Source of the DNA: an uncultured Planctomycetales bacterium | GTDB taxonomy: Bacteria > Omnitrophota > Gorgyraeia > Zapsychrales > JANLHA01 | DNA: 64,000 nucleotides | Reading direction: 5' to 3' | Assembly (NCBI GenBank): GCA_964474085.1 | Contig: CAYYRJ010000002.1 | Span: 6,110 to 70,109 of the forward strand | In this document: positions 9,111 to 63,973 of the stretch, piece after piece | Numbering within the stretch: position 1 is the first letter of the stretch | Layout of the letters: every line of letters begins with the position of its first letter | Position numbers and translations under genes: made by a program | Notes under the pieces: model-generated | What the model saw: only the letters and a program-made list of their open reading frames with translations | What the model was told of the DNA's origin: nothing | The model's database searches: none

Positions 9111-12100
9111 ATGAATACAAAACATAAAAATTTATTTCGCAAAGGCGTTAGCACCCTGATTCTGCTGTGTTTTTTAAGCGGACAGGTCTTTTCGCCGTCG
9201 ATTGTTTCGGCACAAAGTGTCCTTAATCTGCCCATGCCCGGAGCGATGGTCGGCATCAGCCCCAGCTACGTTCCAATTGCCATTAAAGGCCTCAAAGTTT
9301 ATCCTGATAATCCTTTTCGTTTTGACTTTATCCTCGACACCGGCAACTCCCGACTTGAAGGCCAGAAACTCCAAAACGAAACTAATCTTTTAATCAAATA
9401 CTTCCTCGCCGCATTAACTGTTCCCGATGACGATCAATGGGTCAATCTTTCGCCTTATGAAAAAGACCGCGTGATCCCTAAAGAATTTGGGGTGACCGAA
9501 ATGGGCCGCGATTTGTTGGCCCAGGATTATCTGCTTAAGCAATTGACCGCATCATTGATTTATCCGGAACATGAATTAGGCAAGAAATTCTGGGACCGGG
9601 TAAATCAGAAGGCTTATGAAAAGTACGGCGACACAAAGGTCCCGATGAGCACATTCAATAAAGTGTGGATCATGCCCGACCATGCCAAGGTTTATGAAAG
9701 CGGGAGTGTCGCTTTTATCACCGAGAGTCATTTGAAGGTGATGTTGGAAAGTGATTATGTAGCATTGGCTACCCAGCAAATGTCATCCCCGCATGCTTTA
9801 AGCGGGGATCCATTATTAAAAATGGATTCCCGCTTCCGCGGGAATGACAAAGGAGAGCAAACAAACGCATTAGGTTCCCAAATCCTTCGCGAAATCGTCC
9901 TGCCGGAGATCGAAAAAGAAATCAATGAAGGCAAGAATTTTACCAAGCTGCGTCAAATTTATCATTCCATGATCATGGCTGCGTGGTTTAAGCGCAAACT
10001 ACAAGGAGGAATGCTGAGCAAGATTTATGTTGGTGCTAATAAAGTGGCGGGCGTCGATGTTGAAGACAAAGACGTTAAACAAAAAATTTACGACCAGTAT
10101 ATCGTTGCGTTCAAGAGGGGTGTTTATAACTATATCAAAGAAGAAATCGACCCCGTCACTCAAGAAAACACACCACGCAAATATTTTTCCGGCGGGGTCG
10201 TGGCAGGGAAAGCCGTGGCGTATACAACGGTCATTGAAATCGCAAGTTCACCACAGCAATTAAACACCGTTGTCGCTAGCAGCACCACTGGCAATTTAAT
10301 TACGGCTTTTTCGACGTTGGAGCCAACATCCGCTTCCAGTTCTTTGGATGATAAGCGTATCAAAAGAATGCTGGAACTTTCCAAGAGTAAAGATTCTTGG
10401 GACTGGGTTTCTGACGAGTGGGAAATTAGCGAACTCATCTACTCCCCAGGAGGGATTCAGAAGTCCGGTATAATTGGTTCCAACCGGCAACCGATTGCAA
10501 CTGACGAATTCGGAAATCGTCCACACTGGGTTTATATCCTTTACAATTCGCAAACTGACAAAACCGTCTATGTCGGACCCGATGATGTCAAAGCCCTTTT
10601 TGGGAAACGTGATCGATTGGAAACTATCGATCAACTGCGCGCGGAAAAAGAAGCGGAAATTAAGGCCAACAGTGCACGGGTAAAGATAATCGCTGCGCTT
10701 CGACAGCTCTTTGGCGAAACAGAGGGCACAAAGCAACTAGTGTCCGAATTGGCCGGTGATATTGAAAAACCCGGCGATCGCCATATCGAGCTTATTGAAT
10801 CCTCAGAGCAAGAATACGAAGAAATCTGGAAGAATTTTCAATTGCCGGATGTAGCGCTCCAGAGATTCCTAGAAATATTTTATGATGTAAGCAAAGCCGC
10901 CAAAGAGGCCAAAAGATGGGAAAAACTGATTTACCTGTCCGTAGATGACCAAAAGCAGGTTTCCAAAGTGCTCGCCGGCATTAAAGATGGAAAAACTTTG
11001 ACAATTGAGGATATCCGTTTATTGATCAAAGTCCACAAAGTTATCTTGGATTTAAAAAACAGTCTCAAAAAAGAAGCCTTAGTTTGGGCCAGGCGCGGAA
11101 CACAGAAATCTGACGAGCATGTCAATCCAAGGCGGCCCGCTTATCAAGCCAATATTTGGGTCGCATCCTGGCTGGCCGCTGCGAGTCTGACTCATCCACT
11201 AATTTTAGACGTGGGAGCAAATTCAAGCGTCCTGTGGTCAACATTAAAAGGCTTTTCCCCGGAGTTGGCAGATGATGTTGTTGACCTCGAATACGATAAA
11301 GATATTTATGAAGTTGCTCCGAATCCCTTAAAAATTCGCGCTGATATCAGCCGCCTCACGGATGGGATCGAGAGTTCCGATGAAACAACCAAAGAACTGA
11401 TTACAACGCCTCACAGCTTCGATATTCTAACTGTTAACTTTGTTTTAGACCAGCTTGAACCCGCCGATGTCCGAGGCGCTTTAATCGCTTTTGAACATTT
11501 GCTTAAATTGGCTTCCGATCATCCGCGGCTAATTATTTCCATGCCTAAGGGGTCGCCGTTAAAAGGTTCTCGTTTTCATGCCGTTTTGCAAAGACTTGGC
11601 TATAAAACCATTGTTGAAGGCGCGAATTTGAGCAATCAGTTAACAACTGCTGCCAAAGAAAGAATCAGCCAAGAAACAGGAGGCAATGAATATTTGCGCA
11701 CGATTGAAGCGACCTTGACCGAAAAAGTTTTTCACGTTGGGGTTTATGAAAAAACCAGAGACGTTGCCGCTAGCGAATTTGATCAGATCGATCTTTCGGA
11801 TCTTGAAATCCGTAACGGCGACAGCAGGCAATCAAACGGTAACGGAAACGGTAACGGTTTTGATTACCGCTTTACGCCTGACACAGTTGATCTTAACGAT
11901 CTATTTGCCTCGCTCAAGCCGGAAGATTTTCTAACTAAATCCGTAGAAATTGTGACGCTAAATGAATTAAGCACAAACCCACAGTATGCGGCGTTCTATA
12001 AAAATTTAGATGTCTTATTATGGCTCAAGGATATGATTACGAATAGGCCTCAAGTTTTAGAAGCCATCCCACAATTGCGCACCTTAAAGCGCAGTTGGGA

Positions 12101-13904
12101 ATCCGCCGCCAGGGCCAAGGCTTCGATGGATGAAGGAGCTGCTTTTATCCAGGCGGATTTTGTCCGGGATATCATGTGGGCGATGGACAGAACAATATTG
12201 GTTTTAGATCAGGTCGCAGCTATGTCGCCGGATGTCTTTGAACACTTAACCCGCCAAAGAGAAGAGGTTAAAACAGCATGGGATTTTGATAACCGGTTTA
12301 ACGTCGATTTTGACCAAGCCCGGCAGGCGTTCATAAGAAATCTAGAAAAACAGAAATATTCCCTTGAGAACATCTACGACATATACCAGATAATTTACGC
12401 CGAAGCTCTTGGACTTGTAGCTGCCCTTGAACAACCTAAAGCTGTTGTAGAGAATAAGCCATATCAAAAACCGGCTAACCCAAAATTCCTCAATGAGGCT
12501 CTCGGTATTAAAAGTTATGCTGACCCCAAAATTGAGGAACAAATAAAACAAACGGCCGCCCGACTCAAAGAACAAAACGGACGGATGGGAACAGTCAGCG
12601 AGATCGCAAAAGCAATGGACGTCGATGTCCTTTTGCTAAATATGCATCTTAAATTCTTTTATCGCAACGATACTCAATATGTAGCATCATTGAATAATTT
12701 AGGGATGGAGCCGGATGACATTCCTTCAAATAAAATGGCACGACGCAAACTTGTGAGTGAAACAGCGATAAGAATTCTTGAAAAATATGGTTATCTTCCC
12801 ACACCGAAAATGGTTGAACGCGTTCTTGGGTTACGGAATGGAACGCTCAACCGATGGCGAACCAAGGGAGGAATGTTGGAGGAACAAGAAGACTGGGGGA
12901 CATTAGGTCTTTTTGCTTACTATGATCGCACTGATTTCGACTACCACACCATCCCCATCGAATCCCGGCTTGCCGCCGTGCGATATTTAGCCAATATAAT
13001 CCGCACCGATCCAAATCCAAAGCCGCTCATTAAACTATTTTTTGATTATTATCATATCCCACTTCATTCAGCAGCTAGGCTTATGAAATCATTATTTGAA
13101 GACGGTTATACCCTTGATGCGCTGGGGATCGACCCAAAGTTCTATAATCATGCTGAATACTTTAAGCCGCAAAACGCTGCATATACGCTACGCATTTTTC
13201 ATAATAAAGATTACCCTGTCGATAAAAGAGAGCAGGCCATAAAGACAATTATTGGAAACTTGGAAAACCGCGGGATTAAGCCGACCTACAGCGCCGTTCT
13301 AAAAGAAATGAATCTTGATATACCGAATTTCTTGAAATTTATTGCTCCTATTCTTCCAGCGGGAGATAGTTATTATGTAAAATTCGGTATCGAAAATGGT
13401 AGCGTCCCCACAGGTTATGACGAGGCGGCTTATCAAAGACTAGAAAAAACTGTGTCTGCCCTGAACTCCCAAAATATTCCGCTAACATGGCCTAATGTTA
13501 AAAAATGGGTTTTTGAGCATTACCCCGCTACTGAGCTGCACGACGGCTGGCTGCCCGGGCCTATCCGACACGATGAGACCGCAAAAAGAAAGGACGCGCT
13601 GGGAATTGCCGACGGTGAACAAATACCGATCGCCAGTTCCAGTTTAAGTCAAGCAGAAATATCACCTGCGACAAAAACCAGAATGGAAAACAATCTCGGC
13701 GGTATCGACATGAATTCAAAGGCTTTAGATTTGCAAACAGAAGGAGAAGGGATCAAGTTCGACATGCCGTTTGACCCGACACAGTTACAAAACATCAAAA
13801 TCGAAGGTTTCACACCGGTGATTTTACGTATCCTTCCAACCAATTTGCCGCTATTACGCGATCTTAAAGAAAATAAAAAAGAAATAGAAGTTAGTAGCTT
13901 ATAA
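9111..13904 (+). CDS. giant secreted protein 1 (about 1597 aa) with conserved N-module and C-module shared with giants 2 and 3; contains methyltransferase-like segment and GNGNGNG repeat
   Basis: Signal-peptide-like start MNTKHKNLFRKGVSTLILLCFLSGQVFSPSIVSAQS; N-module YFLAALTVPDDDQWVNLSPYEKDRVIPKEFGVTEMGRDLLAQDYLLKQLTASL...VWIMPDHAKVYESG shared with ORFs at 55413 and 58661; the 23 codons upstream of 9111 in the tracker ORF are repeat translation (CHPRESGDP). Confidence 0.8.
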   Translation: MNTKHKNLFRKGVSTLILLCFLSGQVFSPSIVSAQSVLNLPMPGAMVGISPSYVPIAIKGLKVYPDNPFRFDFILDTGNSRLEGQKLQNETNLLIKYFLAALTVPDDDQWVNLSPYEKDRVIPKEFGVTEMGRDLLAQDYLLKQLTASLIYPEHELGKKFWDRVNQKAYEKYGDTKVPMSTFNKVWIMPDHAKVYESGSVAFITESHLKVMLESDYVALATQQMSSPHALSGDPLLKMDSRFRGNDKGEQTNALGSQILREIVLPEIEKEINEGKNFTKLRQIYHSMIMAAWFKRKLQGGMLSKIYVGANKVAGVDVEDKDVKQKIYDQYIVAFKRGVYNYIKEEIDPVTQENTPRKYFSGGVVAGKAVAYTTVIEIASSPQQLNTVVASSTTGNLITAFSTLEPTSASSSLDDKRIKRMLELSKSKDSWDWVSDEWEISELIYSPGGIQKSGIIGSNRQPIATDEFGNRPHWVYILYNSQTDKTVYVGPDDVKALFGKRDRLETIDQLRAEKEAEIKANSARVKIIAALRQLFGETEGTKQLVSELAGDIEKPGDRHIELIESSEQEYEEIWKNFQLPDVALQRFLEIFYDVSKAAKEAKRWEKLIYLSVDDQKQVSKVLAGIKDGKTLTIEDIRLLIKVHKVILDLKNSLKKEALVWARRGTQKSDEHVNPRRPAYQANIWVASWLAAASLTHPLILDVGANSSVLWSTLKGFSPELADDVVDLEYDKDIYEVAPNPLKIRADISRLTDGIESSDETTKELITTPHSFDILTVNFVLDQLEPADVRGALIAFEHLLKLASDHPRLIISMPKGSPLKGSRFHAVLQRLGYKTIVEGANLSNQLTTAAKERISQETGGNEYLRTIEATLTEKVFHVGVYEKTRDVAASEFDQIDLSDLEIRNGDSRQSNGNGNGNGFDYRFTPDTVDLNDLFASLKPEDFLTKSVEIVTLNELSTNPQYAAFYKNLDVLLWLKDMITNRPQVLEAIPQLRTLKRSWESAARAKASMDEGAAFIQADFVRDIMWAMDRTILVLDQVAAMSPDVFEHLTRQREEVKTAWDFDNRFNVDFDQARQAFIRNLEKQKYSLENIYDIYQIIYAEALGLVAALEQPKAVVENKPYQKPANPKFLNEALGIKSYADPKIEEQIKQTAARLKEQNGRMGTVSEIAKAMDVDVLLLNMHLKFFYRNDTQYVASLNNLGMEPDDIPSNKMARRKLVSETAIRILEKYGYLPTPKMVERVLGLRNGTLNRWRTKGGMLEEQEDWGTLGLFAYYDRTDFDYHTIPIESRLAAVRYLANIIRTDPNPKPLIKLFFDYYHIPLHSAARLMKSLFEDGYTLDALGIDPKFYNHAEYFKPQNAAYTLRIFHNKDYPVDKREQAIKTIIGNLENRGIKPTYSAVLKEMNLDIPNFLKFIAPILPAGDSYYVKFGIENGSVPTGYDEAAYQRLEKTVSALNSQNIPLTWPNVKKWVFEHYPATELHDGWLPGPIRHDETAKRKDALGIADGEQIPIASSSLSQAEISPATKTRMENNLGGIDMNSKALDLQTEGEGIKFDMPFDPTQLQNIKIEGFTPVILRILPTNLPLLRDLKENKKEIEVSSL
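9781..9849 (+). repeat. 69-bp composite palindromic element inserted in-frame in giant gene 1
   Basis: TGTCATCCCCGC-atgctttaa-GCGGGGATCCA ttattaaaaa TGGATTCCCGC-ttcc-GCGGGAATGACA; translated in frame as MSSPHALSGDPLLKMDSRFRGND; 69 nt = 23 codons, no stop. Confidence 0.7.
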
Positions 13905-46838: not shown

Positions 46839-46844
46839 GGCATT

Positions 46845-49503: not shown

Positions 49504-49830
49504 AACGTTTCCTTTTCTGTTAAAAACTGCTAATAATAAAATAAAAAACCCACTGCCGTGTAAATTCGGTAGTGGGTTGTCCCATCCTACAAAACTATTT
49601 AAATTATGACCTGCAGAAAAAAATATTGGACATTGGTGTTTCCAGCCGTCCTGTAGTCTCGTGACTTAGGGACTTTATAACACAGACAATTAGTAAACGT
49701 CAAATATTATTTCAGAATGCCCTCACAAAAATACACTCATGAAAAGTCAACTGCAACTTATCGTGCCACAAAAATTTGACTTTCCCAAAAAACTATCGTA
49801 TTTGATCTTCTGATTTCATTTAACGCTAAA

Positions 49831-51554: not shown

Positions 51555-51568
51555 GTCTTACAATCCCG

Positions 51569-52489: not shown

Positions 52490-52514
52490 GCCTCCACTTA
52501 ATTAGATAACCTTA

Positions 52515-53459
52515 TTACCAAGTCACGTTTTTAAACTCCTCAGCATAAAGCTTGTCACCAGGATTTTCCTTGATCGTACCGATGGCAACTAATTCATCGG
52601 CTAAAGCACCCAAGCCTTCGCGGTCAAGATTCGTCTGAAACTTGAGACGTCCATTACCATGAGCAATGGCATCTTTGGGCGCACCGGTAAATTGCTGGGC
52701 GATCGTAAGGATCTCCTCGGACGTTGGATCGTTTAAAATCAACTCGTTGGCTTTTTGAATTGCTTGAATAAATTTCTTTACCGCGTCGGGATTTTGCTTA
52801 ACGAACGCCTTACGCGCATTGATCGTGCGGCAAGGAATATTGGAAGAAGCATCCTTGAGAATAACCTTGAACCCTTTGAGCTCGGCAATACTGACATGTG
52901 GCTCCTCAAGGATCGCGCCATCGACCTTGCCAGCTTCAAGAGCGGCAATAGCCGGTCCACCAGCCAGTTTTTCAAGATTGAAACTTCCGCCAGCCTCACG
53001 CACTTTCCTGGTATAAGAAATGACCGCTTCGCACGTCGGAGATATTCCGGCGATTTTTTTACCGATCAAATCGCTGTAACTGCGGATCGGAGATCCTTGC
53101 GGAACAACGAGGACTGATGTGCAGGGCTTTTTGACTTGTGCGATAAGGCAGATTGGAGCGCCGTTGGCAGCCGCGCTAATTGCCGCTGTCGGGCAGGTAA
53201 AATAAATATCCGCTGATCCTGAAACCACCAGATCGCGTGACGCCGCGGCGTCCACAACAGGCACAACCGTTACGTCGAGACCTAACTCGGAGAAATACCC
53301 TTTTTCCTTTGCAACGTAAAGATTTAGGTGATGCGTTGTTTTTGCATCAGCTACATAAATCTTCACCGAACCCTGACCCGCTTGTGCACCCGCAGGGACA
53401 GTCGAAAAAAGCAAAGATGCCCCTAAAATAAATGATGTTATTTGATTTGTTTTTTTCAT
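52515..53459 (-). CDS. NMT1/THI5-like (SsuA-like) ABC substrate-binding protein, secreted
   Basis: Signal peptide MKKTNQITSFILGASLLFSTVPAGAQA; KIYVADAKTTHHLNLYVAKEKGYFSELGLDVTVV typical of SsuA/TauA/NMT1 binding proteins. Confidence 0.75.
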   Translation of the reverse strand: MKKTNQITSFILGASLLFSTVPAGAQAGQGSVKIYVADAKTTHHLNLYVAKEKGYFSELGLDVTVVPVVDAAASRDLVVSGSADIYFTCPTAAISAAANGAPICLIAQVKKPCTSVLVVPQGSPIRSYSDLIGKKIAGISPTCEAVISYTRKVREAGGSFNLEKLAGGPAIAALEAGKVDGAILEEPHVSIAELKGFKVILKDASSNIPCRTINARKAFVKQNPDAVKKFIQAIQKANELILNDPTSEEILTIAQQFTGAPKDAIAHGNGRLKFQTNLDREGLGALADELVAIGTIKENPGDKLYAEEFKNVTW

Positions 53460-53533
53460 AAATTTCCCTTTCTTAGATTGATTCTACATAAGAAGCCTTT
53501 ACCAAAAAAATAGAAGGATATATTTGCATCTGT

Positions 53534-54823
53534 TTAAAACTTATACAGGAATGTCGTTTGAACGCGATGAGCATCCGCTTTCTGTTTATCAAACCACTTG
53601 GTATTAAAAGTTTGATACTCAAGAGCCACAAGAATATCCTTGCTTAAGCTGTATTTCACGTTGGTATAGTACGTTTTATTAACATCCCAAAGAGCACTTT
53701 TATCGGCGTTTGAATAAGCAGAATTATCTTTTACATCATCAATACCGATACCAAAGTTAGCTTCGACGTTGTTAACCGGGATGTAAGACAATTCAGCAAA
53801 ACCACCTTTGACTTCAATGGGTTTGCGATTGGCTTCTCCGGTGCGAGAGTCTAGCGTTTGCGCAGGCCCCCCACTGAATTTGTTTAAACCTTTTCCAACG
53901 AAACCTTCACTCTTAAAGGAAAGCCAATCCGTTAATTTAAGCGTCAAACTTACGGTTGTCGCCGCAAGCTCTTCGCTTCCAAGTCCCTTGCCAATAGTGT
54001 TAAACCGACCATAAAGACCGCCAACCCCTAATGTCGATTTAATCCCATAAACTGTTTTATCATATTGGGCATAGGCACCCAAAACCGGCAAACCGGAATC
54101 TTCCTGAACGGAATCATCAGAGTCTAGGGCGCCGACTTTGGTTGTCACAACTCCGCCTAAGGCCTCGCCCCACTTATTAGTGAGCGTAATCTGCGCATGC
54201 CGGACACCGATATTCCCGGATCTAAATAAGTACCCCGGATTCACCAGATTAGGCATTAAAGGGGCTACGAAATCCCAATCCTGCCCCGCCCGTAAACTCC
54301 ATTTCTGAAAAGATAAATCGGCATAGGCTAAACGCAAACGTGGCGTATATGTGCCGACCGTACTCCCACCAAAAAAATCAAATTCTACCTTCCCTGACAA
54401 TTTCCCACCGTTAAATAAATCAGGCGCTTTAAGATTTAAGCCCAACCGTGTATCCTGAGCTGAAAACTGTGTTTCAGGGTCATCTGATACGCTTGGACGA
54501 CTTGCATTGGTTTGAAGTGTTGAATTGACACCATTTCCTCCAGCATCACCACTAGAAAAAACCAAGTCCGTTTTAACCTGACCGTATAACTCAATTTCCC
54601 CCTTTGATTTGACAAAATTTCCTGCGCTAGGATTAGGTTTAGCCTTAAATTCTGATAACTCGTTTTTCTGCACAGCGTTTTCTCTTTCAAGCGAATCAAC
54701 ACGTGACGTAAGAGTCTTTATCTGTGTCACTAAGTCCTCCGTCTGATCTGCTGATGCTGGCATAGCAACACCGACCACCACAAATACGGCAGACCAAAAT
54801 CCTAATAAGTATTTCCTAGTCAT
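53534..54823 (-). CDS. outer-membrane beta-barrel porin-like protein with N-terminal coiled-coil segment
   Basis: Signal peptide (MTRKYLLGFWSAVFVVVGVAMPASA), alternating amphipathic beta-strands, C-terminal aromatic beta-signal ...TTFLYKF; strong RBS AAGGAG before ATG 54823 (tracker start 54883 less likely). Confidence 0.6.
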   Translation of the reverse strand: MTRKYLLGFWSAVFVVVGVAMPASADQTEDLVTQIKTLTSRVDSLERENAVQKNELSEFKAKPNPSAGNFVKSKGEIELYGQVKTDLVFSSGDAGGNGVNSTLQTNASRPSVSDDPETQFSAQDTRLGLNLKAPDLFNGGKLSGKVEFDFFGGSTVGTYTPRLRLAYADLSFQKWSLRAGQDWDFVAPLMPNLVNPGYLFRSGNIGVRHAQITLTNKWGEALGGVVTTKVGALDSDDSVQEDSGLPVLGAYAQYDKTVYGIKSTLGVGGLYGRFNTIGKGLGSEELAATTVSLTLKLTDWLSFKSEGFVGKGLNKFSGGPAQTLDSRTGEANRKPIEVKGGFAELSYIPVNNVEANFGIGIDDVKDNSAYSNADKSALWDVNKTYYTNVKYSLSKDILVALEYQTFNTKWFDKQKADAHRVQTTFLYKF

Positions 54824-55412
54824 TATCTTCTCCTTTTTTTTGTGTTTGACTAATTCACCATTTTGTATGTAATCGCCTAACAAAATGCATTAAGCGTCAT
54901 ATCTCCCCAGAACCAGACCTTAATAAAAAAAGTCCTTATTAAATACCTTTGGGCTCGCAGAGCTTATTGCTCCGTAGTCAATTCAAAAGTTATTTGCCAA
55001 TAATTTTTGGCAAATAAAAAGGCCCAAAACACATTCGGGTTGAACCGAAAATATTTTGAGCCTCCAGATGTCTGGTGAGCCTGTTTATTAATGAAGCTTC
55101 AACACAACAACTTGCCAACTTAAATCACACACGACAAAAACAATTTTTCACAACTCAAACCACAATGCCTACTATCCCTATAGTCTTTATAGGCTTATAA
55201 TTTAGCATAAAAAATTTTCTTGTCAACATTTTTTATTTCCTATTACATTTCAAGAGTAAAAGATATTAAACACAATAACTTACAACTCAAACCGCTTCCT
55301 AAGAAATCTATTAAAAATACACTTAAAACTCCTTGATGAACCTTCTTCGAAAACTTTACGACACAAATCTACAAAAACCCTCAAAATTTCTTTCGCCTCT
55401 CACGATCTAAAT

Positions 55413-58400
55413 CTAGTTAGTTATTTCGCTTAATATTGGTACGGTCTGGACATTAATCGGCATAATATTAAGGATAACCGGATAAAAACCATTTACATGA
55501 ATATCCTCTAAATCTTTTTGCGAGAAAGACAGATGCCCACGACTCCGATCTTCATCACCCTCGATCTGCAAGTTGAGTTTAGAAGGATCAAAGTTAATAC
55601 CACCGAGATTTTTATGGACCGCTGGAAAAAAAGCAGCTTCATGTCCATTAACTGCGTTTAAAACGACACCGTCTTTTTGTTTATCTAAAACGTTTTTCTC
55701 TACCCGTCTAGATAATTCGTTTCGTGCCCATGCAAAAATAAGTTCATACATCTTGTCCCCCGCAGAAACACCACTGGCTTTAGCGAACACTTCTCCCTCA
55801 TTGAAAGCAAGAACTCTTTTCCAAGAAGATCGAAACCAATACTTAATCGCAAATGGCCGAAAAAGCACACTTTCCGACGATCCTTTTGCCCAATATTCGA
55901 GATATTCCTTATCCAATGCAGCAAAATATGTTTGAAAAAAAGTTTGTATCATTTCGGCGGAAGACGGCAAAATATATTTTTGATCAGGCTCAGTGTATCT
56001 AACAATGTCTTTTATATCCTCGAGCACAGAAAGCATACCTGCCGTGCTAATTCTATACTTGCGCAATGTTTCGATATCTTTTTCAGTAGCTTTTCCTTTT
56101 TCAACATAAACAACAAAATCATTGTAGGAAAGAAATTCTTCATTGTCTGATTCTTGAAAAAACGGGAAAACGATATCTTGAGGATGTATCGTTTTTTTGA
56201 ATAATTGCTTATTTTGTTTTTCTGCTTCAGCCAAAGCTCTTTTTTCGACTCCTGCTAAGATCAATTCTTTAACTGACAAAATCTTCCCCGCAGGCAACAT
56301 GTTTAACTCCACCATTCTTCTCGATATTCTTCGACGCAATCGCTCGAATCCCGGATCGCCATTAAGAATTTGACGAAACTTGGTTAATCGCTGCGGGTAT
56401 ACTACTCGATTAAATATGAGGACAGGAATAAACTTCGACCCATCCTCATCTTGAAAAAGATCCAGATTTTTTACGGAAACTAGATTGCCATTCCCGTCGG
56501 GTATCTCATTTAAATATTGATACCCCAAAATTTCGACAAACAAACCTTTTGTATTCTCTAAGATTTTACTAGCAGCCATGGCCGCCTTGGCTTCTTTTTC
56601 AGAGGCTAATCCCCAGTTTCTCGAAGATGCTAATTCCGGGTTTCTTAATAGTTCAGGCATACTTTTCACTGAGAAAAAAGGAGGTTTATCCTCATATACG
56701 TACTGACCTGATCCTTTTATACTAAACCAAGAAGAGGCATAGGCCTGCCTCCCATTGGCGACTCTAAATCCGGGGCTAAAAGTTTCATCCGCCGAACTAA
56801 ATCGATCGGTGATCCCAATAAATATTTTAGTTTCCGGGTTTTGACGTAATGCCCTAAGAGCAACCTCTGCATTGCCAATTAGAAAACCGCGATGTTCTTT
56901 TATATAATCCCGTATCGGCTTACCATCAATATACTCAACAGCCCTATTATTATTGACGACCATATCACCAACACTATGATCGGGCAATGATTGCAAAAAT
57001 TGCGGCCTCAAGGAAGGGTCATCTAATAAAATTTGTTTAACTTCCAAAGTAAACAAATCTAAAAGTGGTTGATAATGATGTTCCTTGTGTTCAAAGTCAG
57101 GGAAGATAGAATCTTGCCTCGTTAAATAAGCTCGCCATTTACTCTTAAATTCTTCTGGGGATAAATCTTCTGCCAAATTTACTTCCTGGGTCTTCGCGAT
57201 ATTAACGAAACCATCCTCGGCAGGATTAACTTTTCTGGCGTGGTGACTTTCCGAAACACGGGAAGAAACAAGCACGACTTGGTTTTCCTGCAAATCGCTA
57301 ATCGCGCGCACAGCCAGATCACGTCCGCGATCATCAATGACGGTTAATGAACTCGAAGCAAAGCTCATCACTTCTCCACCCGAGAAATATTTTCGAGGAA
57401 TCATTTCCCCATCGGGGCCGTCTTCTTCCTTGATAAGGTTATATGCGCCGTTTTTGAATGCTTCCAAATACTTCTCATAAACTTCTTGCTTAATATCTTG
57501 AACATCGCTTTCAAGACCTGCGACTTTCGATTTGTCGGTGTAAATTCTGCTAAACAAAGAGTCTTTAAGCGCCTTTTTATACCAAGCCGCTAAAATGACG
57601 CTTTGATAAACTTGGCGGGTCGCGGCAAAATTCTTGCCCGTGTTGACTTCTTCAATAAGCTTAGGCAAGATCAGCTCGCGAAAAACCGCGGTGGAAATGG
57701 AAACGACAGAAGAACCCCTATTTATCTGTAGGGGCGTATTGCAATACGCCCCTACGGCATTATTTTCATATTCCTCATCTAACATCACCTTTAATTTACT
57801 TTCCGTAATGTAAGCAAAGCCGTCCTTTTCGACAACTGTTGCGCCGTCGGGAACGATCCAGACTTTATTCTGTAGGGGTGTATTACAATACGCCCCTACG
57901 GCAATGCTTCGTTCATTAACTGTATCCCAGAATCTTTTCCCCAAATCCGTATCCGGATTGGTCAAAGACGCAGCCAACTGCTTTAAAACATAATCCTGTT
58001 CAAGCATTTGTCGACCCATTTCGGTTTGTCCGAGAGCATCAGGAACGATACGATCTTTCTCATACGGTGATAGATTAACCCACGCGTCCTTATCAGGAAT
58101 AGTGATGGAAGCTAAAAAGTATTTTATGAGTTTTGTGCTTTCGTTTTTGAGGGTCGCATTATCGATCCTCTCCTGCCCGCGATCGACGATAAAATCAAAC
58201 AAAAACGGATTTTCAGGATGAACCGTCATCCCTCTTAATACGGGCGGTTGAAAAGCGACCGAAGTCGCAAAGTCTAAAGGGATACCGATCCGACCCGCGG
58301 CGAGGCCAGAGGTAAGCCAAACCATCTGCCCTACCAAAAACGCCAGCAGAATAAAGCCGCTCATAGCTTTGCGAAACCCAAATTTATCTTTAACAAGCAT
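55413..58400 (-). CDS. giant secreted protein 2 (about 995 aa); N-module and C-module shared with giants 1 and 3; unknown core
   Basis: N-module LIKYFLASITIPDKDAWVNLSPYEKDRIVPDALGQTEMGRQMLEQDYVLKQLAASL...VWIVPDGATVVEKDG; C-module KNLGGINFDPSKLNLQIEGD...VNGFYPVILNIMPINV; start ATG 58400 (MLVKDKFGFRKAMSGFILLAFLVG, signal-peptide-like) preferred over 58481, which would overlap the small ORF at 58403-58630. Confidence 0.75.
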   Translation of the reverse strand: MLVKDKFGFRKAMSGFILLAFLVGQMVWLTSGLAAGRIGIPLDFATSVAFQPPVLRGMTVHPENPFLFDFIVDRGQERIDNATLKNESTKLIKYFLASITIPDKDAWVNLSPYEKDRIVPDALGQTEMGRQMLEQDYVLKQLAASLTNPDTDLGKRFWDTVNERSIAVGAYCNTPLQNKVWIVPDGATVVEKDGFAYITESKLKVMLDEEYENNAVGAYCNTPLQINRGSSVVSISTAVFRELILPKLIEEVNTGKNFAATRQVYQSVILAAWYKKALKDSLFSRIYTDKSKVAGLESDVQDIKQEVYEKYLEAFKNGAYNLIKEEDGPDGEMIPRKYFSGGEVMSFASSSLTVIDDRGRDLAVRAISDLQENQVVLVSSRVSESHHARKVNPAEDGFVNIAKTQEVNLAEDLSPEEFKSKWRAYLTRQDSIFPDFEHKEHHYQPLLDLFTLEVKQILLDDPSLRPQFLQSLPDHSVGDMVVNNNRAVEYIDGKPIRDYIKEHRGFLIGNAEVALRALRQNPETKIFIGITDRFSSADETFSPGFRVANGRQAYASSWFSIKGSGQYVYEDKPPFFSVKSMPELLRNPELASSRNWGLASEKEAKAAMAASKILENTKGLFVEILGYQYLNEIPDGNGNLVSVKNLDLFQDEDGSKFIPVLIFNRVVYPQRLTKFRQILNGDPGFERLRRRISRRMVELNMLPAGKILSVKELILAGVEKRALAEAEKQNKQLFKKTIHPQDIVFPFFQESDNEEFLSYNDFVVYVEKGKATEKDIETLRKYRISTAGMLSVLEDIKDIVRYTEPDQKYILPSSAEMIQTFFQTYFAALDKEYLEYWAKGSSESVLFRPFAIKYWFRSSWKRVLAFNEGEVFAKASGVSAGDKMYELIFAWARNELSRRVEKNVLDKQKDGVVLNAVNGHEAAFFPAVHKNLGGINFDPSKLNLQIEGDEDRSRGHLSFSQKDLEDIHVNGFYPVILNIMPINVQTVPILSEITN
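57728..57755. repeat. 28-bp perfect palindrome inserted in-frame in giant gene 2 (copy 1)
   Basis: GTAGGGGCGTATTGCAATACGCCCCTAC; translated on the minus strand as AVGAYCNTPLQ. Confidence 0.7.
57872..57899. repeat. 28-bp palindrome inserted in-frame in giant gene 2 (copy 2, two mismatches)
   Basis: GTAGGGGTGTATTACAATACGCCCCTAC; also translated as AVGAYCNTPLQ; the two copies flank the conserved VWIVPD...ITESKLKVMLDEEY segment. Confidence 0.7.
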
Positions 58401-58402
58401 AT

Positions 58403-58630
58403 TTAAAGAGTGTCCCCGCGAACCAACAAACGGCGTTTTCGGGTTCCAACTGTCTTTCGTTTCCGATAACGGGCGATCCAAGCCATCGCGTATCTCTTAA
58501 GCCACTGCGCAGATCCCTGCTCAAAACTTATTTCATGTCCGGCCTTTTCGCTTTCGATCCAAATATAGCGGTCGATCTCGGCTAAGACTTTTTTGTTTTT
58601 CAATAACTGTGAATAATAAATACTGGCCAT
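58403..58630 (-). CDS. small hypothetical protein (75 aa) between giant genes 3 and 2
   Basis: MASIYYSQLLKNKKVLAEIDRYIWIESEKAGHEISFEQGSAQWLKRYAMAWIARYRKRK; compact, non-low-complexity; stop 2 nt before the preferred start of giant gene 2. Confidence 0.4.
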   Translation of the reverse strand: MASIYYSQLLKNKKVLAEIDRYIWIESEKAGHEISFEQGSAQWLKRYAMAWIARYRKRKTVGTRKRRLLVRGDTL

Positions 58631-58660
58631 TTTGTCTCCAACACATACTTTTCCTTTACT

Positions 58661-61600
58661 TTAAACGTCTGAATGCTCCAACTGCGATTTAAACCCCAAA
58701 AAAATCGGCATATTTACCGGCGTCATCGGCGAGATATTTCTAATAACAGGCACAAGCCCCGGGATATCAAGCAATGCCGGATCCTGAAACTGCACAGGTA
58801 ACACGAACCCTTTATCATCAACTTTGACATTGATCTTTAAATTATTCGCATCAAGGTCAATACCGCCAACCGGCGCTGAGGCAACACTTGCGGCGGCATC
58901 TGAATCCGGCAAAAGATAATACGGAAACAAATGCGGCAAAATAACCTCTCCTGCTTGACGAGAAGCAATCGAATTATAATTGCGATGATTCCCTATGCCG
59001 GTGACATCCGCCTGCGGCACAATCAGAACACCAGCCACACTTTCTTCGCCGTCTCTGACATCCAAAACAGTGATATCCGCGCCGTCTGAAAGCGGATGAT
59101 CGCCGCGCTTTATCCCTTGTGTGTTGATCCATGCAACTTTTGCATTAAACGCGTTTCCTTTAATGGATCCGATAACTCGCCTGCTTTCTAAACCCTGCTC
59201 ATCAACTAAGACATAATCGGTATCTTTGTCAAAAGCCGCAGACCTTAAAAAGTTTTGCTCGTCGGGACTGACCGTCGTAAATTTGACGCGTTGTTGTCCC
59301 GAAATTTCAAAAAGATGTCCATCGTTTTCTTGAAACTGCTGGATTAACTTATCCGCCGAGGAATCTTTTTTTGTCACAACCACAATGTTGATGGGTTTAC
59401 CGTTTGGTTTTGCGGCCGTGTCAAAAACCCAATGTTTCAACAGAAGATTAACCGCCCCGGCAAATGACGGCGCGGAAATTCCCTGAACTTCCTGACTAAA
59501 GGCCTTTGCGGCACCGGCTTCAGCTGTCGCTAAAAGTAGCTGCGCTGTTGCGCTCGCCGGATTTCCAAAACGTCCATATGTCCGGTAAGATCCCTGAGCA
59601 GGAAAAGAACCACTGCTAGGATCCCCCGCCTTGCCATTCCAACCAAAACCAGTTTTAAGATCATCCGGGTCATCCGCGCGAAAAGCGTTTGATGGATTGC
59701 CGCCGCTGGCAACCAGCGAGCGATGGTCTCCGCTTAACAATCCCCAAATGGACGTATGATGTATAAACAATGTGTGCGGATTATATTTTGTGATCAGCGT
59801 CGCATCGTTGATCAGCTGCGCTGTTTGTTTAAGAGGATTTTCCGAGATAATAAAATAGTCCCGAACCCGGTCAAGTTCGGCAATTGACGCATTGATATCC
59901 GGTTCCACGCCGTAGGCGCCTTTTGTGTCACGCTTGACGACTGGATACTTGCGCAACGCGTAGCCTGTTTTTCCGTCGACATTTGTTGTCGGCTGCATAA
60001 AAATAGTGTCGAGCTGCGCGAACGGAATTTTTTCAAACTTGCCATCGTATATTTTAAGAATCTCAAAAATAGCGTCTAATTCACGCAAAACATCCTTTGG
60101 ATCCTCAATTCCCACAGCCCAGCGAATACCCCCACGCGTGACCCCGCCTTGGCGCAGTTCTTCGTCACTTAATCCCGATAGCGCGCCATAACCGGGCATT
60201 TGCATGAGGTTACGAACATCACCTAGGCTCACAGCGTGTTCAATAGTTCGAAAATACCGTAAAAGCGCCATAAACGCTTTCGCGCGCTCTTCTGTTTTCA
60301 AATCAAAATAAATCATATGTCCCGGGTTATCCATCTGCTTTTGCGCTAAACCATATTGTGGATGCGTTTGATCGCCGGGATAACGCACAAACTCAACCTG
60401 AGGATTCTTTTTTAACCACTCGACATAAAATCGGGCGTTTTCCTGCTGCCGAAAAAATCTTCTTTCCAAATTCGGCAATCCGTAACGCAAAAGTTTAATC
60501 GCATCATCCCTATTGATCGGCTCGGCCCGAGAATTTCGCAATTCTTGCGCGATCTCTTTTTGGGCAACAATGACCGCGCCAAAAACATTTCCGTCGCCGG
60601 AAAGCCCTTTGGTCACAACCTGAACAACCGCGTCAACACCAAAATCTAGCGGCTGTTGGCCTAAGGATGTTGCAAATGATCCGTCGAAAATAATAAACGC
60701 TTGCGGTGAAACAGAACTGCGCACCGCGTCAACTGTCCGCTTAATACTAATAATCGGCAAGGAAGGATTAGCCGGAGTTTCAAAAATCAAAGCCGCTGTA
60801 TTTCGAGATAACTCCTGCGCAAGTTGATTTTCCGGATCAGTCACAATCTTAACCTTAAGGCCATATTTCCTATATAATTCAACATCGCCTTCTGTCCCGC
60901 CGTAAGCCGGACGAATTAAAATTATTTCAGGAACCAAAGCAGGATTTTGTTCAGTAAATTTTTTTAACGCGTATCGCAGCGGCAAATGCACACCAGCAAC
61001 ACCGGAAGCAACACTAACACCGGCATATTGCTCTGTTACTAAATTTCGTGTCTCAAGCGCTGTGATCGCCTGCTCAACTTGTTCGACAGGATTCAAAACG
61101 ATTTGAGGTGTATTCCCAGAACCATTATTCCCGCCAGAGCCGGCTTTATTTGCGATTGGAGGTTTTCTTGGTGCTCGGGCTTTTGCCACAGGCTTTTGTC
61201 CCAAAGCTTCTTGCGCAACCACAACCCGAAGCTCATCTAAAGTCTCTGTTTTTGCGGCAATGGGACTGATGCTATCCGATATAAATCCCTGTGCTGTCCC
61301 GACGCTAATTCCTTCATCTTCCAAAACAACATCTGGTTTATTTTCTGATGTATTAACAGGAAGAATTCGGTTTGTATCAACAACGGTCTGATCTGCTAAA
61401 ACTGTTTTTGTAACCGTAGCGTTAGCTCCAATTTGAGCCCCTTTACCGACGGTGATCGGTCCTATGATCTGTGCTCCGGCGCCTAAAGTGACATCATCTT
61501 CAACAATGGGGTGTCGGCGACCGTCAATCGTATTTTTATTTGCGCCAAGGGTCACGCCATGCAAAATATAAACATTGTTTCCAACGACAGCTGTCTGCCC

Positions 61601-63973
61601 TATAACAACACCTGTCGCATGATCAAACAATACGCCATCGCCAATTGTCGCGCCTGGATGAATATCCACCCCGAAATTGTTCGTGATCGCATTTTGTAAA
61701 GCTAAAGCCAAATCCTGCCTGTCATTAAGCCACAGCCAATGTGCGATGCGATAAGCCGCAAGCGCGTGGAACCCTTTAAAATTAAGGAATGGATTAGAAA
61801 TATCCCCGGACGCAGGATCACGTTCAAGCACAGCCAAAAGATCGCGGCTAACTGAGTTAAGAATATCCGGCGATGCGTTTAACACTTGCAATATTCCCTG
61901 CTTTAGCTTATCAACATCAAATACGTCTGAGCGGAGTTTACTTGCTAATAAATTAGCAAGCGCCGTTTTAAAATCTGGTGCGGAAAGGATCGTTTTTTCA
62001 AGAGGCGCAGAAAGAAGCGGCTCTTGTTTGGCAACACGGCCAGCATTTTCTTTTAAACGATTCCAGAGAGAATCCAATTGCGCCGAATCAGAACTGCTAT
62101 CTGCCTTACCGCTAGTATCTCCAACAACTTTTAATGCTGGTTTTTTTGTCGACGTTTTTGCGGCTTTTTCTGCCCGCTTTAAATTTGTTGAACTTTCCGT
62201 CTTCGCGTAAACTCTTTTTAATTGCGCTAAACGTTCCCATGCTTCTTCTGGATCAATCGAATCAATCTGGCGATCATCTCGATGGGCTCTTAAACTTTCG
62301 GCAATTGCTTTTTCGGAAACAACGATCAACCCTTTTGAATTTTGCTGCGCAAGCGTTGTGGTTGCCTTATTTAAACGTGCCCCGCTGAAAGCAACAAGCG
62401 CTTGCGGATTTTTAGCATTGACCGTCTGGATAAATTGCTGCGAACTTTCTGATTTCGCAAATGGGAACAATACAATAGCAGTTTGTTTTGTCAAAACTTC
62501 GGTTAACTGTTCAATATTCTTAACAATGTGCACTTGCTGTGAATTACGACGAGCATATTCGCCAATAACGCTATCTTGCGGCGTATCTTCAGGGATATAA
62601 AATACTACTTGGCCGGCTTGGCCGGTAAATTCAGGTTTTGTTTTTGCAAAATCGATCAGATGACCTACAGCTGAGAATTGATCCGCATAACTGACACCGT
62701 CAAAATCGCCTTTTTCTCCTGAAAAATGCACACGCGCAGTCAAATGCTCAACGGACCGCACCTTTTGATCGACTCCCAAATCCGAAAAATCATTGTAAGC
62801 TGATCGTATCGCATTGACCAAATCCGTATCAACTATATCCGGTGATTTGCCGTTTAAAAGTCGGTTCACCGAGCTTGAGGATACATTAGTGTTAATAATC
62901 GTCGGGTCAACGCCCAGCATCCCGCCGGAAAAATATTTACGAGGCAAAGTCTCATGCGTTAGCGGATCTTCTTCTTCCTTAATATAGTTAAACACCCCGA
63001 CCTTAAAAGCCTGCAAATATTGTTCATAAATTTTTTCTTTAGCCTGCGGGTCATCAACCTGCACACCCGCGACTTTATTCTTATCCGTGTAAACTTGCGC
63101 TAAAAGTGTTTCCTTGAGTGTTTTTTTATACCATGTCGCGAGAATCATTGAATTGTAGATCTGGCGAAGCGGCGCAAAGTTTTTGCCCTCGTTGACTTCC
63201 TTTTCGATGATCGGGATAATAATTTCGCGTACCGCGTTTAAAGTATATTCCTGATTTTCTGTGGAACTTTCAGGTTGCACCGTCTGTCCGCCGGAAGCCA
63301 AAACTTTGCTGTTTTCTTTTTCGGCCAGATAATCTTTTTCGAGCATGACTTTCAAATGGCTTTTTACCAAAAACGCAGTGCCGTCTTTTTGATAAATATC
63401 TGCCTGATCGGCACGAATCCAAATTTTATTAAATGTATTAATAGGGATATCTGTCGTCTTAAATTTTTCATATGCCTGACTATACACTTTTTGCCAAAAT
63501 CCACGACCAATATCCTCTTCTGGATACATCAAAGAGGCTGTAAATTGTTTTAGAATATAATCCTGTGCTAAAAGTTCTTTTCCGGTGTTCGTTTGCTCAA
63601 GATTTTTGCCAATGATCCGATTAGACTCATAAGGCGAAAGATTAACCCACATGTCTTTATTGGCAACCGTCAAAGATGCAAGAAAATGCTTAATGAGTTT
63701 TGTGTACTGTTCTTTCTGCTGATTGGCACTCAAAAGCTCATCGCCCTTGTCCATCACAAAGTAAAAGTGGAAAGGGTTTTGCGGGTCGATCTTTAAACCG
63801 ATCATCTGCGCCGGAGTAAAAATGCCGGTCGGCTGCAACATTTGCCCGATGGGAGAAAGCAAAGGCACAGCTTGCGCATAACCCGACTGCGCAGGCAACG
63901 CGCTTAGCATAAACACAATAAGTGCAATCGCGATTGGACGAAACAAAGATTTTTTCTTAATTTGCTGAAACAT
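58661..63973 (-). CDS. giant secreted multidomain protein 3 (1770 aa): shared N-module, complete CysE-like serine acetyltransferase, complete PLP-dependent Cys/Met-metabolism (CGS/OAS-OAH sulfhydrylase family) domain, shared C-module
   Basis: Signal peptide MFQQIKKKSLFRPIAIALIVFMLSALPAQSGYAQA. N-module HFLASLTVANKDMWVNLSPYESNRIIGKNLEQTNTGKELLAQDYILKQFTASL. Residues about 700-860: GFHALAAYRIAHWLW...DIHPGATIGDGVLFDHATGVVIGQTAVVGNNVYILHGVTLG (SAT). Residues about 955-1305: ASGVAGV...YGGT...ETPANP...FDGSFATS...GVDAVVQVVTKGLSGDGNVFGAVIV...GIRWAVGIEDPKDVLRELDAI (PF01053-type, PLP lysine K1122 at nt 60608-60610). Confidence 0.8.
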   Translation of the reverse strand: MFQQIKKKSLFRPIAIALIVFMLSALPAQSGYAQAVPLLSPIGQMLQPTGIFTPAQMIGLKIDPQNPFHFYFVMDKGDELLSANQQKEQYTKLIKHFLASLTVANKDMWVNLSPYESNRIIGKNLEQTNTGKELLAQDYILKQFTASLMYPEEDIGRGFWQKVYSQAYEKFKTTDIPINTFNKIWIRADQADIYQKDGTAFLVKSHLKVMLEKDYLAEKENSKVLASGGQTVQPESSTENQEYTLNAVREIIIPIIEKEVNEGKNFAPLRQIYNSMILATWYKKTLKETLLAQVYTDKNKVAGVQVDDPQAKEKIYEQYLQAFKVGVFNYIKEEEDPLTHETLPRKYFSGGMLGVDPTIINTNVSSSSVNRLLNGKSPDIVDTDLVNAIRSAYNDFSDLGVDQKVRSVEHLTARVHFSGEKGDFDGVSYADQFSAVGHLIDFAKTKPEFTGQAGQVVFYIPEDTPQDSVIGEYARRNSQQVHIVKNIEQLTEVLTKQTAIVLFPFAKSESSQQFIQTVNAKNPQALVAFSGARLNKATTTLAQQNSKGLIVVSEKAIAESLRAHRDDRQIDSIDPEEAWERLAQLKRVYAKTESSTNLKRAEKAAKTSTKKPALKVVGDTSGKADSSSDSAQLDSLWNRLKENAGRVAKQEPLLSAPLEKTILSAPDFKTALANLLASKLRSDVFDVDKLKQGILQVLNASPDILNSVSRDLLAVLERDPASGDISNPFLNFKGFHALAAYRIAHWLWLNDRQDLALALQNAITNNFGVDIHPGATIGDGVLFDHATGVVIGQTAVVGNNVYILHGVTLGANKNTIDGRRHPIVEDDVTLGAGAQIIGPITVGKGAQIGANATVTKTVLADQTVVDTNRILPVNTSENKPDVVLEDEGISVGTAQGFISDSISPIAAKTETLDELRVVVAQEALGQKPVAKARAPRKPPIANKAGSGGNNGSGNTPQIVLNPVEQVEQAITALETRNLVTEQYAGVSVASGVAGVHLPLRYALKKFTEQNPALVPEIILIRPAYGGTEGDVELYRKYGLKVKIVTDPENQLAQELSRNTAALIFETPANPSLPIISIKRTVDAVRSSVSPQAFIIFDGSFATSLGQQPLDFGVDAVVQVVTKGLSGDGNVFGAVIVAQKEIAQELRNSRAEPINRDDAIKLLRYGLPNLERRFFRQQENARFYVEWLKKNPQVEFVRYPGDQTHPQYGLAQKQMDNPGHMIYFDLKTEERAKAFMALLRYFRTIEHAVSLGDVRNLMQMPGYGALSGLSDEELRQGGVTRGGIRWAVGIEDPKDVLRELDAIFEILKIYDGKFEKIPFAQLDTIFMQPTTNVDGKTGYALRKYPVVKRDTKGAYGVEPDINASIAELDRVRDYFIISENPLKQTAQLINDATLITKYNPHTLFIHHTSIWGLLSGDHRSLVASGGNPSNAFRADDPDDLKTGFGWNGKAGDPSSGSFPAQGSYRTYGRFGNPASATAQLLLATAEAGAAKAFSQEVQGISAPSFAGAVNLLLKHWVFDTAAKPNGKPINIVVVTKKDSSADKLIQQFQENDGHLFEISGQQRVKFTTVSPDEQNFLRSAAFDKDTDYVLVDEQGLESRRVIGSIKGNAFNAKVAWINTQGIKRGDHPLSDGADITVLDVRDGEESVAGVLIVPQADVTGIGNHRNYNSIASRQAGEVILPHLFPYYLLPDSDAAASVASAPVGGIDLDANNLKINVKVDDKGFVLPVQFQDPALLDIPGLVPVIRNISPMTPVNMPIFLGFKSQLEHSDV

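Follow-up and report, generated by a model that had tools for sequence, protein, structure and literature searches.

Omnitrophota are abundant bacteria, uncultured and ultra-small, for which a predatory or episymbiotic life is assumed, and it is an open question by what means they affect their partners. Current discussion of these interactions centres on a few giant genes. The cells are described as ultra-small and host-dependent (PMC10066038); for the epibiotic predator V. archaeovorus, open cytoplasmic contact and the presence of predator RNA in dead prey have been reported (PMC13153191). Giant proteins in which a signal peptide precedes multiple enzymes have been presented as a puzzle, their topology contradicting a cytoplasmic role (bioRxiv 10.64898/2026.06.07.730766). 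Here we analyse a stretch of 64,000 nucleotides (the window; contig CAYYRJ010000002.1, positions 6,110 to 70,109) from an uncultured Planctomycetales bacterium assigned by GTDB to Omnitrophota, and three proteins encoded in it, G1, G2 and G3. Judged by their sequences, they are members of a phylum-wide Omnitrophota family that counts thousands of proteins, several per genome. We propose that they are modular proteins destined for export, whose ends are constant and serve trafficking while the cargo varies; they are built from two domain families without known relatives. In the literature on Omnitrophota and giant genes, we found no description of either module or of the family.

All three open reading frames (ORFs) are present in the ORF listing of the window at the places assigned to them in a preliminary description of this DNA. 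Each begins with a signal-peptide-like segment, as proposed there and in line with the leader statistics of the family. G1 (9111..13904, plus strand; ORF and BLASTP) has 1597 amino acids (aa); G2 (55413..58400, 995 aa) and G3 (58661..63973, 1770 aa) lie in tandem on the minus strand. Together they take up ~20% of the window sequence. With 995-1770 aa they are large, and the label 'giant' that they first received does not hold by Omnitrophota standards.

The plan of the three proteins is the same. In G1, a Sec/signal peptidase I (SPase I)-type signal peptide read from the sequence (MNTKHKNLFRKG-VSTLILLCFLSGQVF-SPSIVSA↓QS; 9111..9212) precedes the N-module, which spans residues about 35-362 (9213..10196; delimited by BLASTP, family alignment and an AlphaFold2 (AF2) model) and ends in PRKYFSGG. 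Then follow a variable core of 1166 aa in which profile searches found no confident domain (10197..13694) and the C-module with its tail and stop codon (LGGIDMNSKALDLQTEGEGIKFDMPFDPTQLQNIKIEGFTPVILRILPTNLPLL…; 13695..13904). The leader of G2 (MLVKDKFGFRK-AMSGFILLAFLVGQMVWLTSGLA↓A; 58299..58400), read from the sequence and from family statistics, is continued by its N-module (57375..58298, by BLASTP), a variable core without detectable family in profile searches (55611..57374) and the C-module (NLGGINFDPSKLNLQIEG…GFYPVILNIMPINVQTVPIL…; 55413..55610). G3 starts with a leader defined likewise (MFQQIKKKSLFR-PIAIALIVFMLSAL-PAQSGYAQA↓V; 63869..63973) and an N-module, again closed by PRKYFSGG (62921..63868, by BLASTP); its C-module (VGGIDLDANNLKINVKVDD…GLVPVIRNISPMTPVNMPIFLG…) occupies 58661..58870. 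Compared with the GTG/TTG starts at 9042 and 58481, which give longer ORFs, the ATG starts at 9111, 58400 and 63973 are in better agreement with the leader pattern of the family.

The similarity of the two ends, claimed in the preliminary description, stands up to pairwise BLASTP. For the N-module, identity reaches 45% over 404 aa between G1 and G3 (E 1e-89), 44% over 376 aa between G1 and G2 (E 1e-95) and 46% over 300 aa between G2 and G3 (E 2e-75). The C-module, of about 65 aa as described, gives 36% over 66 aa for G1-G2 (E 2e-8), 32% over 59 aa for G2-G3 (E 8e-4) and 26% over 69 aa for G1-G3 (E 0.005). This likeness is not due to chance, because in 111 of 135 independent cluster representatives of the family a hidden Markov model (HMM) of the C-module matches at the very C-terminus, exactly once in each and with a median distance of 12 residues to the stop. 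Between the modules, the cores of G1, G2 and G3 share no significant similarity by BLASTP, again as claimed.

A word-indexed search with the N-module of G1 gave 1,430 matches. The best 120 of them, at 49-72% identity, come nearly all from metagenome-assembled genomes (MAGs) of Candidatus Omnitrophota; they are annotated as hypothetical, and the module carries no Pfam domain. A HMMER scan of 1.84 billion cluster representatives with the same module returned 8,408 clusters at E<=1e-3, of which 6,800 at E<=1e-30; among the best 150 of the 8,408, the proteins are 420 to 4,969 aa long and always hold one copy of it, at residues ~1-400. In a scan of one genome per species, at least 595 stretches with the N-module were confirmed. 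All locus-based counts given here refer to the best 79 of these at least 595 stretches, all of them loci other than the window.

The 79 loci come from MAGs of Omnitrophota, of which some bear the label 'uncultured Planctomycetales' (binchicken MAGs); the NCBI taxonomy places Candidatus Aceula in Omnitrophota, and one locus (L053) bears the label Candidatus Elulimicrobium, of the Patescibacteria group. Family-bearing contigs labelled Heimdallarchaeota and Pacearchaeota were also seen. The contigs with off-phylum labels of all these kinds (word-search matches P0024 and P0074; loci L001, L002, L008, L053 and others) are probably mis-binned or mislabelled Omnitrophota. The N-module in L001 (CAZWOH010000027.1) is 99% identical to that of G1. 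There are up to 6 family ORFs per assembly within the 79 loci, and tandem arrays are common. The 'three paralogues' of the preliminary description are related as stated, a label that falls short of the phylum-wide superfamily to which they belong, and the outlined architecture of leader, scaffold module, variable cargo and C-terminal tag is borne out in thousands of proteins. Separately, a viral connection was considered and rejected: only 3 loci were found in 2.9 million IMG/VR contigs, and there was no fold match in BFVD.

The two modules go strictly together. The N-module occurs in 97 ORF segments of the 79 loci, 68 of which are complete, and the C-module ends 59 of these 68. At least five of the nine complete ORFs lacking it have an ORF with only the C-module just downstream, as splits by frameshift would give; all other segments with the C-module alone lie where the end of a contig cuts the gene. 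The boundaries are sharp: YFSGG closes the N-module in 132 of the 135 representatives, GGI(D/N) opens the C-module in 108 of the 111 that have it, and A, S, P, T and K abound in the linkers that adjoin the two boundaries. In addition, the pairwise distances of the N- and C-modules are correlated (Mantel r 0.51 for 61 members; none of 2,000 permutations reached this value). This correlation suggests that both ends are inherited or evolve together while the cores are exchanged.

About 10 family ORFs with the N-module at their start continue for more than 3,000 aa, beyond the ends of their loci (L005, L006, L007, L008, L011, L013, L014, L022, L034 and L056). There may thus be larger members, possibly of the published 'giant' class, that share the same head. 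When the 72-aa C-module or its profile of 70 sequences was used in word-indexed searches, only short C-terminal fragments came up, which carried no information on cargo or taxonomy.

Both modules are large domain families without an entry in Pfam, NCBIfam or the PDB, in keeping with the initial impression that they correspond to no named domain. Searched within full-length G1-G3, neither has a match in Pfam or NCBIfam at E<=0.01. The AF2 model of the G1 N-module, built on an alignment of 58 sequences, has a predicted local distance difference test (pLDDT) score of 75.5 and a predicted template modelling (pTM) score of 0.69; the predicted fold is mixed α/β, with three β-hairpins and about eight helices. 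Foldseek detected no relative of it in the PDB (best E 0.05, TM 0.15) and nothing significant in BFVD. By sequence, the PDB contains a single match at E 0.98, which is not credible, and by profile none. The C-module, with the consensus GGIDLNP..LDLQ...G.G....D......I.GF.PVIINI.P..NLP.LLG, gives no fold when modelled alone by AF2 with 50 sequences (pLDDT 58, pTM 0.20), and its profile matches no PDB sequence. In these models it behaves like a linear or partner-dependent element, not an autonomous domain. Processing of the double-glycine type, by a C39 peptidase at the two GG boundaries, was set aside: residues preceding the GG of the C-module are not conserved, unlike those of bacteriocin leaders.

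The N-modules of G1 and G2 also carry short palindromes. An in-frame palindromic element, similar to repetitive extragenic palindromic (REP) sequences (…SSPHALSGDPLLKMDSRFRGNDKGE…; 9782..9850, plus strand), sits in a variable loop of the G1 N-module, which is the low-pLDDT segment of the AF2 model. A second copy of this palindrome (gtcatccccgc…gcgggaatgac) is found just upstream of the ATG of G1, at 9082-9106. The G2 N-module contains two in-frame 28-nt palindromes (57728-57755 and 57872-57899), both copies of gtaggggcgtattgcaatacgcccctac, with the peptide AVGAYCNTPLQ. In other family members, too, such elements sit in the variable loop that holds the one of G1, and peptides of the RFRGND type appear at this loop in unrelated members (P0091, P0193, P0230, L079 and L027).

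A Sec/SPase I signal has a positively charged n-region, a hydrophobic h-region of 7-16 residues and small residues at positions -3 and -1 (AxA). The family leaders appear to have all three features. Among the 135 representatives, the net charge before the h-region has a median of +3 and is at least +1 in 94%, and the median h-region is 16 aa. Behind it stand AxA-type motifs (AQA↓Q, SYA↓Q or YAQ; VSA↓Q in G1 and AQA↓V in G3) and, after the cleavage-type motif, a conserved extended stretch, LNLP.PG.MV..SP.F.P. The signal peptide is the sole hydrophobic 19-mer of G1; no further one exists in G1-G3, nor in 110 of the 135 representatives. Given such leaders and no other hydrophobic segment, standard Sec rules predict soluble proteins exported over the inner membrane.

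It is conceivable that the N-terminus is instead an uncleaved anchor, and that the frame organises the cell's own enzymes at the inner membrane, on its cytoplasmic side, as a tethered metabolon. The cargo would then serve housekeeping metabolism, with G3 contributing to the synthesis of cysteine and methionine beside a sulfur operon. The cargo is indeed of cytoplasmic type; G3 lies on the same strand upstream of genes for an SsuA-type ABC transporter, a SrpI encapsulin, a cysteine desulfurase and a serine O-acetyltransferase (SAT); and about half of the long Omnitrophota proteins have been interpreted as membrane-anchored with cytoplasmic domains (bioRxiv 10.64898/2026.06.07.730766). We nonetheless consider this arrangement unlikely. 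From the positive charges before the h-region, its median length and the AxA motifs, the body of the protein is expected outside, and the fused enzymes are extras, since SAT and iPGM, at least, also occur as standalone genes in the genome.

Among the cores of the window, only the cargo of G3 is recognised by Pfam and NCBIfam. Its first part (61328..62083, minus strand) has the features of a serine O-acetyltransferase: a SATase_N domain (PF06426, E 5.8e-28), predicted left-handed β-helix hexapeptides (PF00132, E 3e-12) and the catalytic histidine motif DIHPGA, kept at residue 770. It aligns with NF008349 over positions 4-254 of 273 (E 1.7e-69), with a score under the equivalog cutoff. The identity with the standalone SAT of the same window is 34%; to judge from the alignment, the SAT of G3 is an extra copy, neither the sole one nor a recent duplicate. 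The second part (60065..61084, minus strand) is a pyridoxal phosphate (PLP) enzyme domain of Cys/Met metabolism (PF01053, E 9.4e-54). The match covers positions 55-380 of the 381 in the profile, and the first ~54 are missing. A TK dipeptide is visible by eye (VVTKGLSGDG), and all equivalog scores are far under their cutoffs. Of the complete CysE and complete PLP domain reported at first, the former is upheld with its catalytic motif, and the latter is shorter than announced.

In the stretch of G3 that follows the PLP domain, Pfam has no match. Its residues ~1440-1690 (about 58900-59650) resemble by eye the N-terminal half of a second Cys/Met PLP domain: a Y.R..NP motif is present as YGRFGNPAS at residue 1466 (59552-59578), and the stretch has no lysine region. 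This could be a degenerate tandem domain or the sign of a permuted arrangement. An exact-sequence lookup of G3 returned no record, and a metagenome scan with its SAT and PLP core found standalone CysE genes only.

The other two cores are less telling. The call of a methyltransferase-like Rossmann stretch in G1 is weak: around residues 732-799, Methyltransf_12 is reached only below threshold (E 0.093; 13.9 bits versus a cutoff of 30), and the core has no sequence match in the PDB. The GNGNGNG run noticed in it is present. The core of G2, called unrecognisable from the start, matches nothing in Pfam, NCBIfam or the PDB.

Across the family, the cores are diverse, and the survey of related genomes proposed in the preliminary description shows the N-module joined to other cores. 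BLASTP finds similarity in only 7 of the 1,711 core pairs from the 79 loci, where core length ranges from 232 to 2,092 aa; family-wide it extends from 0 to about 4,500 residues. At the lower end, the 438-aa protein P0104 is an empty frame, made of leader, N-module, a 15-residue linker and C-module. It is encoded at L080 (2704-4020; ENA ERZ18640406 scaffold_519), directly upstream of a cargo-bearing member of 1,110 aa (4093-7425), and was found on 5 contigs; besides this tandem family member, only unrelated genes surround it. The upper end is taken by members of 4,553 and 4,969 aa, both with more than a single enzyme; here several were recognised, namely enoyl-CoA hydratase, acyl-AMP ligase, SDR/KR, UDP-glucose dehydrogenase and GHMP kinase.

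A census of 58 cores against Pfam, in which many have no match, gives central metabolic enzymes (PGK, enolase, UDP-glucose pyrophosphorylase, PRK/uridine kinase, phosphoribosyltransferase and PPDK_N) and enzymes of redox and sugar-nucleotide chemistry (Glu/Leu/Phe/Val dehydrogenase, alanine dehydrogenase, RmlD and other epimerases). NUDIX domains, methyltransferases and CofD come in addition, as do SNF2 and DEAD/ResIII helicases, the signalling domains PP2C, histidine-kinase ATPase and receiver, and ankyrin, HEAT and TPR repeats. From their family assignments, the cargo domains are overwhelmingly dependent on ATP, NAD(P), CoA or PLP, that is, suited to cytoplasmic chemistry.

This inventory bears on two other explanations. 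The proteins could be exported and kept by the producer, the modules tethering them in the periplasm or on the surface, for instance in the thick protein coat of Velamenicoccus; the cores would then be used for adhesion, binding or moonlighting, not for delivery into another cell. Ankyrin, HEAT and TPR cargos suit binding, the leaders are of Sec type without internal transmembrane (TM) segments, no outer-membrane secretion machinery is linked to the 79 loci, and published giant Omnitrophota proteins have been interpreted as surface or attachment proteins (bioRxiv 10.1101/2023.11.21.568195). However, most cargos, such as PGK, enolase, SNF2/DEAD helicases, acyl-AMP ligase and SAT, need cofactors that are absent outside the cytoplasm, and the SAT of G3 has kept its catalytic motif. 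Moreover, Pfam and NCBIfam searches found no LPXTG, PEP-CTERM, lipobox, S-layer homology or peptidoglycan-binding motif. Altogether, retention in the envelope seems to us somewhat improbable, though to be reckoned with.

The same cargo speaks against weapons of contact-dependent competition, in which constant trafficking ends carry a variable toxin against competitors, as in contact-dependent inhibition (CDI), Rhs, MARTX, LXG or MafB systems. What recalls these polymorphic toxins are the trafficking-like constant ends, the hypervariable region, the tandem arrays, the many paralogues per genome and the MARTX logic of conserved arms around swappable effector modules. Yet the variable part is central and not C-terminal, both ends being conserved; the payloads are commonplace metabolic enzymes, regulators and repeats; neither G1-G3 nor the 58-core census has a toxin, RTX, Rhs/YD, cysteine protease (CPD), TPS or LXG domain; and at the 79 loci no small immunity-like gene recurs downstream. 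We thus regard a toxin role as very unlikely. The three candidates named in the preliminary description, polymorphic toxins, type IX secretion system (T9SS) C-terminal domains (CTDs) and encapsulin cargo, were all tested, and the family has the defining features of none.

We tentatively favour a constant two-ended frame for export or delivery, with interchangeable payloads, in predatory or episymbiotic nanobacteria, and put its chances a little short of even. It starts from what is observed in the family: its architecture, the coupling of the N- and C-modules, the diversity of the cargo, the number of members and the taxa over which they extend, and the lack of known relatives. The polypeptide would first be carried over the inner membrane by a cleavable Sec signal peptide. 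The folded N-module of ~330 residues, with its near-invariant KYFSGG end, would then act as a constant handle, and the ~65-residue C-module, with its GGID start and hydrophobic strand GF.PVIINI.P, as a second one that needs a partner. This partner may be the N-module itself or a shared component of the envelope or of a secretion system, whose gene would lie elsewhere in the genome. Flexible linkers between the handles would hold anything from nothing to several enzymes. In this manner, the constant frame would give many unrelated payloads one shared fate after Sec export. The payloads need ATP, NAD(P), CoA, acetyl-CoA or PLP; therefore, the most economical site for them would be another cell or the predator-prey junction, and not an ordinary periplasm. 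In a bolder form, the N- and C-modules together would be the bipartite recognition signal of a new, Omnitrophota-specific route of export or delivery. It would move folded enzymes (glycolytic ones, those dependent on CoA, ATP or PLP, and helicases) as well as regulators from the ultra-small cells into the prey, the host or their junction, with the published giants as extreme members; we give this a real chance, though one well below even.

Several points weigh against a delivery frame. We infer export, the handle function and delivery from sequence, cleavage of every member included, and the call of signal peptides is built on inspection and simple statistics. No linked gene for a secretion system or a receptor was found in the 79 loci or the window. 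Many cargos are atypical as effectors: receiver domains, histidine-kinase ATPases, HEAT and TPR repeats, and housekeeping glycolytic enzymes. The Cys/Met enzymes of G3, next to a same-strand operon for sulfur uptake and encapsulin, fit the cell's own metabolism at least as well. Finally, shared descent alone could cause the correlation between N- and C-module distances. Of the delivery or sorting system first imagined, the architecture stands; the function is putative, and no dedicated machinery is linked to it in the genomes.

Clustering of the neighbours over the 79 loci, examined for transporters, proteases and chaperones, showed no recurrent genes other than those of generic response regulators, at 16 loci, and of ABC ATPases, at 5. 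In the window, no secretion genes were found; apart from the features described here, its content is housekeeping. Rfam and tRNA scans detected no regulatory RNA near G1-G3.

Downstream of G3 and G2, a run of genes on the same strand forms a sulfur-type family 2A encapsulin neighbourhood (45858-54883, minus strand). The first gene after G2 codes for a porin-like protein without Pfam match (53534-54883). Next come the SsuA/NMT1-type binding protein, permease and ATPase of an ABC transporter (49831-53459), the SrpI-like family 2A encapsulin shell (48526-49503; PF19307, E 2.8e-105), a cysteine desulfurase of 581 aa (46845-48590) whose N-terminal extension of ~200 aa is likely a cargo-loading domain, and the standalone SAT-like hexapeptide acyltransferase (45858-46838). 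A PocR-GAF regulator (44742-45800) follows the latter.

The shell gene, about 9 kb downstream of G2, raises the question whether the C- or the N-module targets enzymes into this encapsulin. The gene lies in the window, on the strand of G2 and G3, and the G3 enzymes are sulfur-related, as known 2A cargo is. Against this, a Sec leader is incompatible with loading into a cytoplasmic compartment; the operon already holds its canonical cargo, the desulfurase with the N-terminal extension; no encapsulin recurs as a neighbour in the 79 other loci; and, by what is established for 2A shells, a protein of 1,000-5,000 aa would be too big for a T=1 particle. We give the proposal hardly any credence.

The remaining surroundings are varied. 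Directly upstream of G1, a plus-strand run (2131-8790) that has the look of a cluster for modifying envelope glycans or lipids encodes a B12-binding radical SAM protein, a GT2 glycosyltransferase, a class I methyltransferase, an FAD amine-oxidase-like protein and a 609-aa polytopic membrane protein without Pfam match. Downstream of G1 lies an ORF-poor gap with a tRNA cluster (Thr-TGT, Tyr-GTA and Gly-TCC; 15466-15898) and tRNA-Pro-GGG (18975-19049), as well as a DUF6798 membrane protein (15934-17772). Among the housekeeping genes are found a RhuM-family 'virulence protein' gene (39388-40410; PF13310, E 1e-109) and, at 31767-33617, the gene of an Rce1-like CAAX protease of 616 aa that has a DUF4901 repeat.

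The family offers a handle defined by sequence: two short HMMs, for head and tail, find thousands of leader-bearing proteins, several per genome, in which only the payload, made of normally cytoplasmic enzymes, varies. Should the frame be a signal for export or delivery, it would define the effector repertoire of the phylum, explain why cofactor-dependent enzymes stand behind signal peptides and provide a portable experimental tag. If the proteins are retained, they would point to an unusual, metabolically active envelope compartment.

Compared with known systems, the family resembles several in part. The family 2A encapsulin system of SrpI and cysteine desulfurase shares the window and a sulfur theme with the G3 cargo, but it is a separate, self-contained operon, whereas the family members have Sec leaders and occur elsewhere without encapsulins. 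T9SS substrates likewise combine a Sec leader, a variable region and a C-terminal tag common to many unrelated proteins. In contrast to them, full-length G1-G3 have no match to Por_Secre_tail, PF18962 or TIGR04183 at E<=0.01, the C-module of the family has ~65 aa and does not fold autonomously (the T9SS CTD being a β-sandwich of ~80-100 aa), its members possess a conserved N-module as well, and their hosts are Omnitrophota, not Bacteroidota. A classical autotransporter (T5aSS) was rejected, the conserved C-terminal region having ~65 aa against the at least ~250 aa of a β-barrel, with no PF03797 match in G1-G3.

TpsA proteins, including the CdiA of CDI, also have a Sec signal, a conserved N-terminal domain of ~300 aa as a possible secretion handle, a long variable body and many paralogues. 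Unlike them, the family has no match to the TPS domain (PF05860), its N-module is predicted to be mixed α/β and not a β-helix, no adjacent TpsB (Omp85/POTRA) gene was found at the 79 loci, and a conserved C-module is added.

The giant proteins of Omnitrophota (Archaeovorins and the 'multi-enzyme metabolic cluster') come from the same phylum and likewise place a signal peptide before many cytoplasm-type domains; HEAT, NUDIX, HAD, PPDK_N, receiver, HATPase_c and methyltransferase domains are common to both. According to the published descriptions, the giants measure 10-147 thousand amino acids (kAA), often have many TM helices and stand beside loci resembling type II secretion systems or Tad. 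The family members, in contrast, have 0.44-5 kAA, below the giant criterion of at least 10 kAA, mostly no TM segments and no conserved neighbours. The N- and C-modules are not mentioned in the published accounts of the giants (bioRxiv 10.64898/2026.06.07.730766; bioRxiv 10.1101/2023.11.21.568195).

Finally, MARTX toxins use a type I secretion system in place of the Sec leader of the family; they have RTX or glycine-rich repeats and a cysteine protease domain, for which Pfam and NCBIfam give no match in the family, they carry cargos other than its housekeeping-type ones, and they are unrelated to it in sequence and fold. In logic, nevertheless, they are its closest analogue: conserved N- and C-terminal regions around a centre in which, from one paralogue or strain to another, unrelated effector or enzyme modules are swapped.

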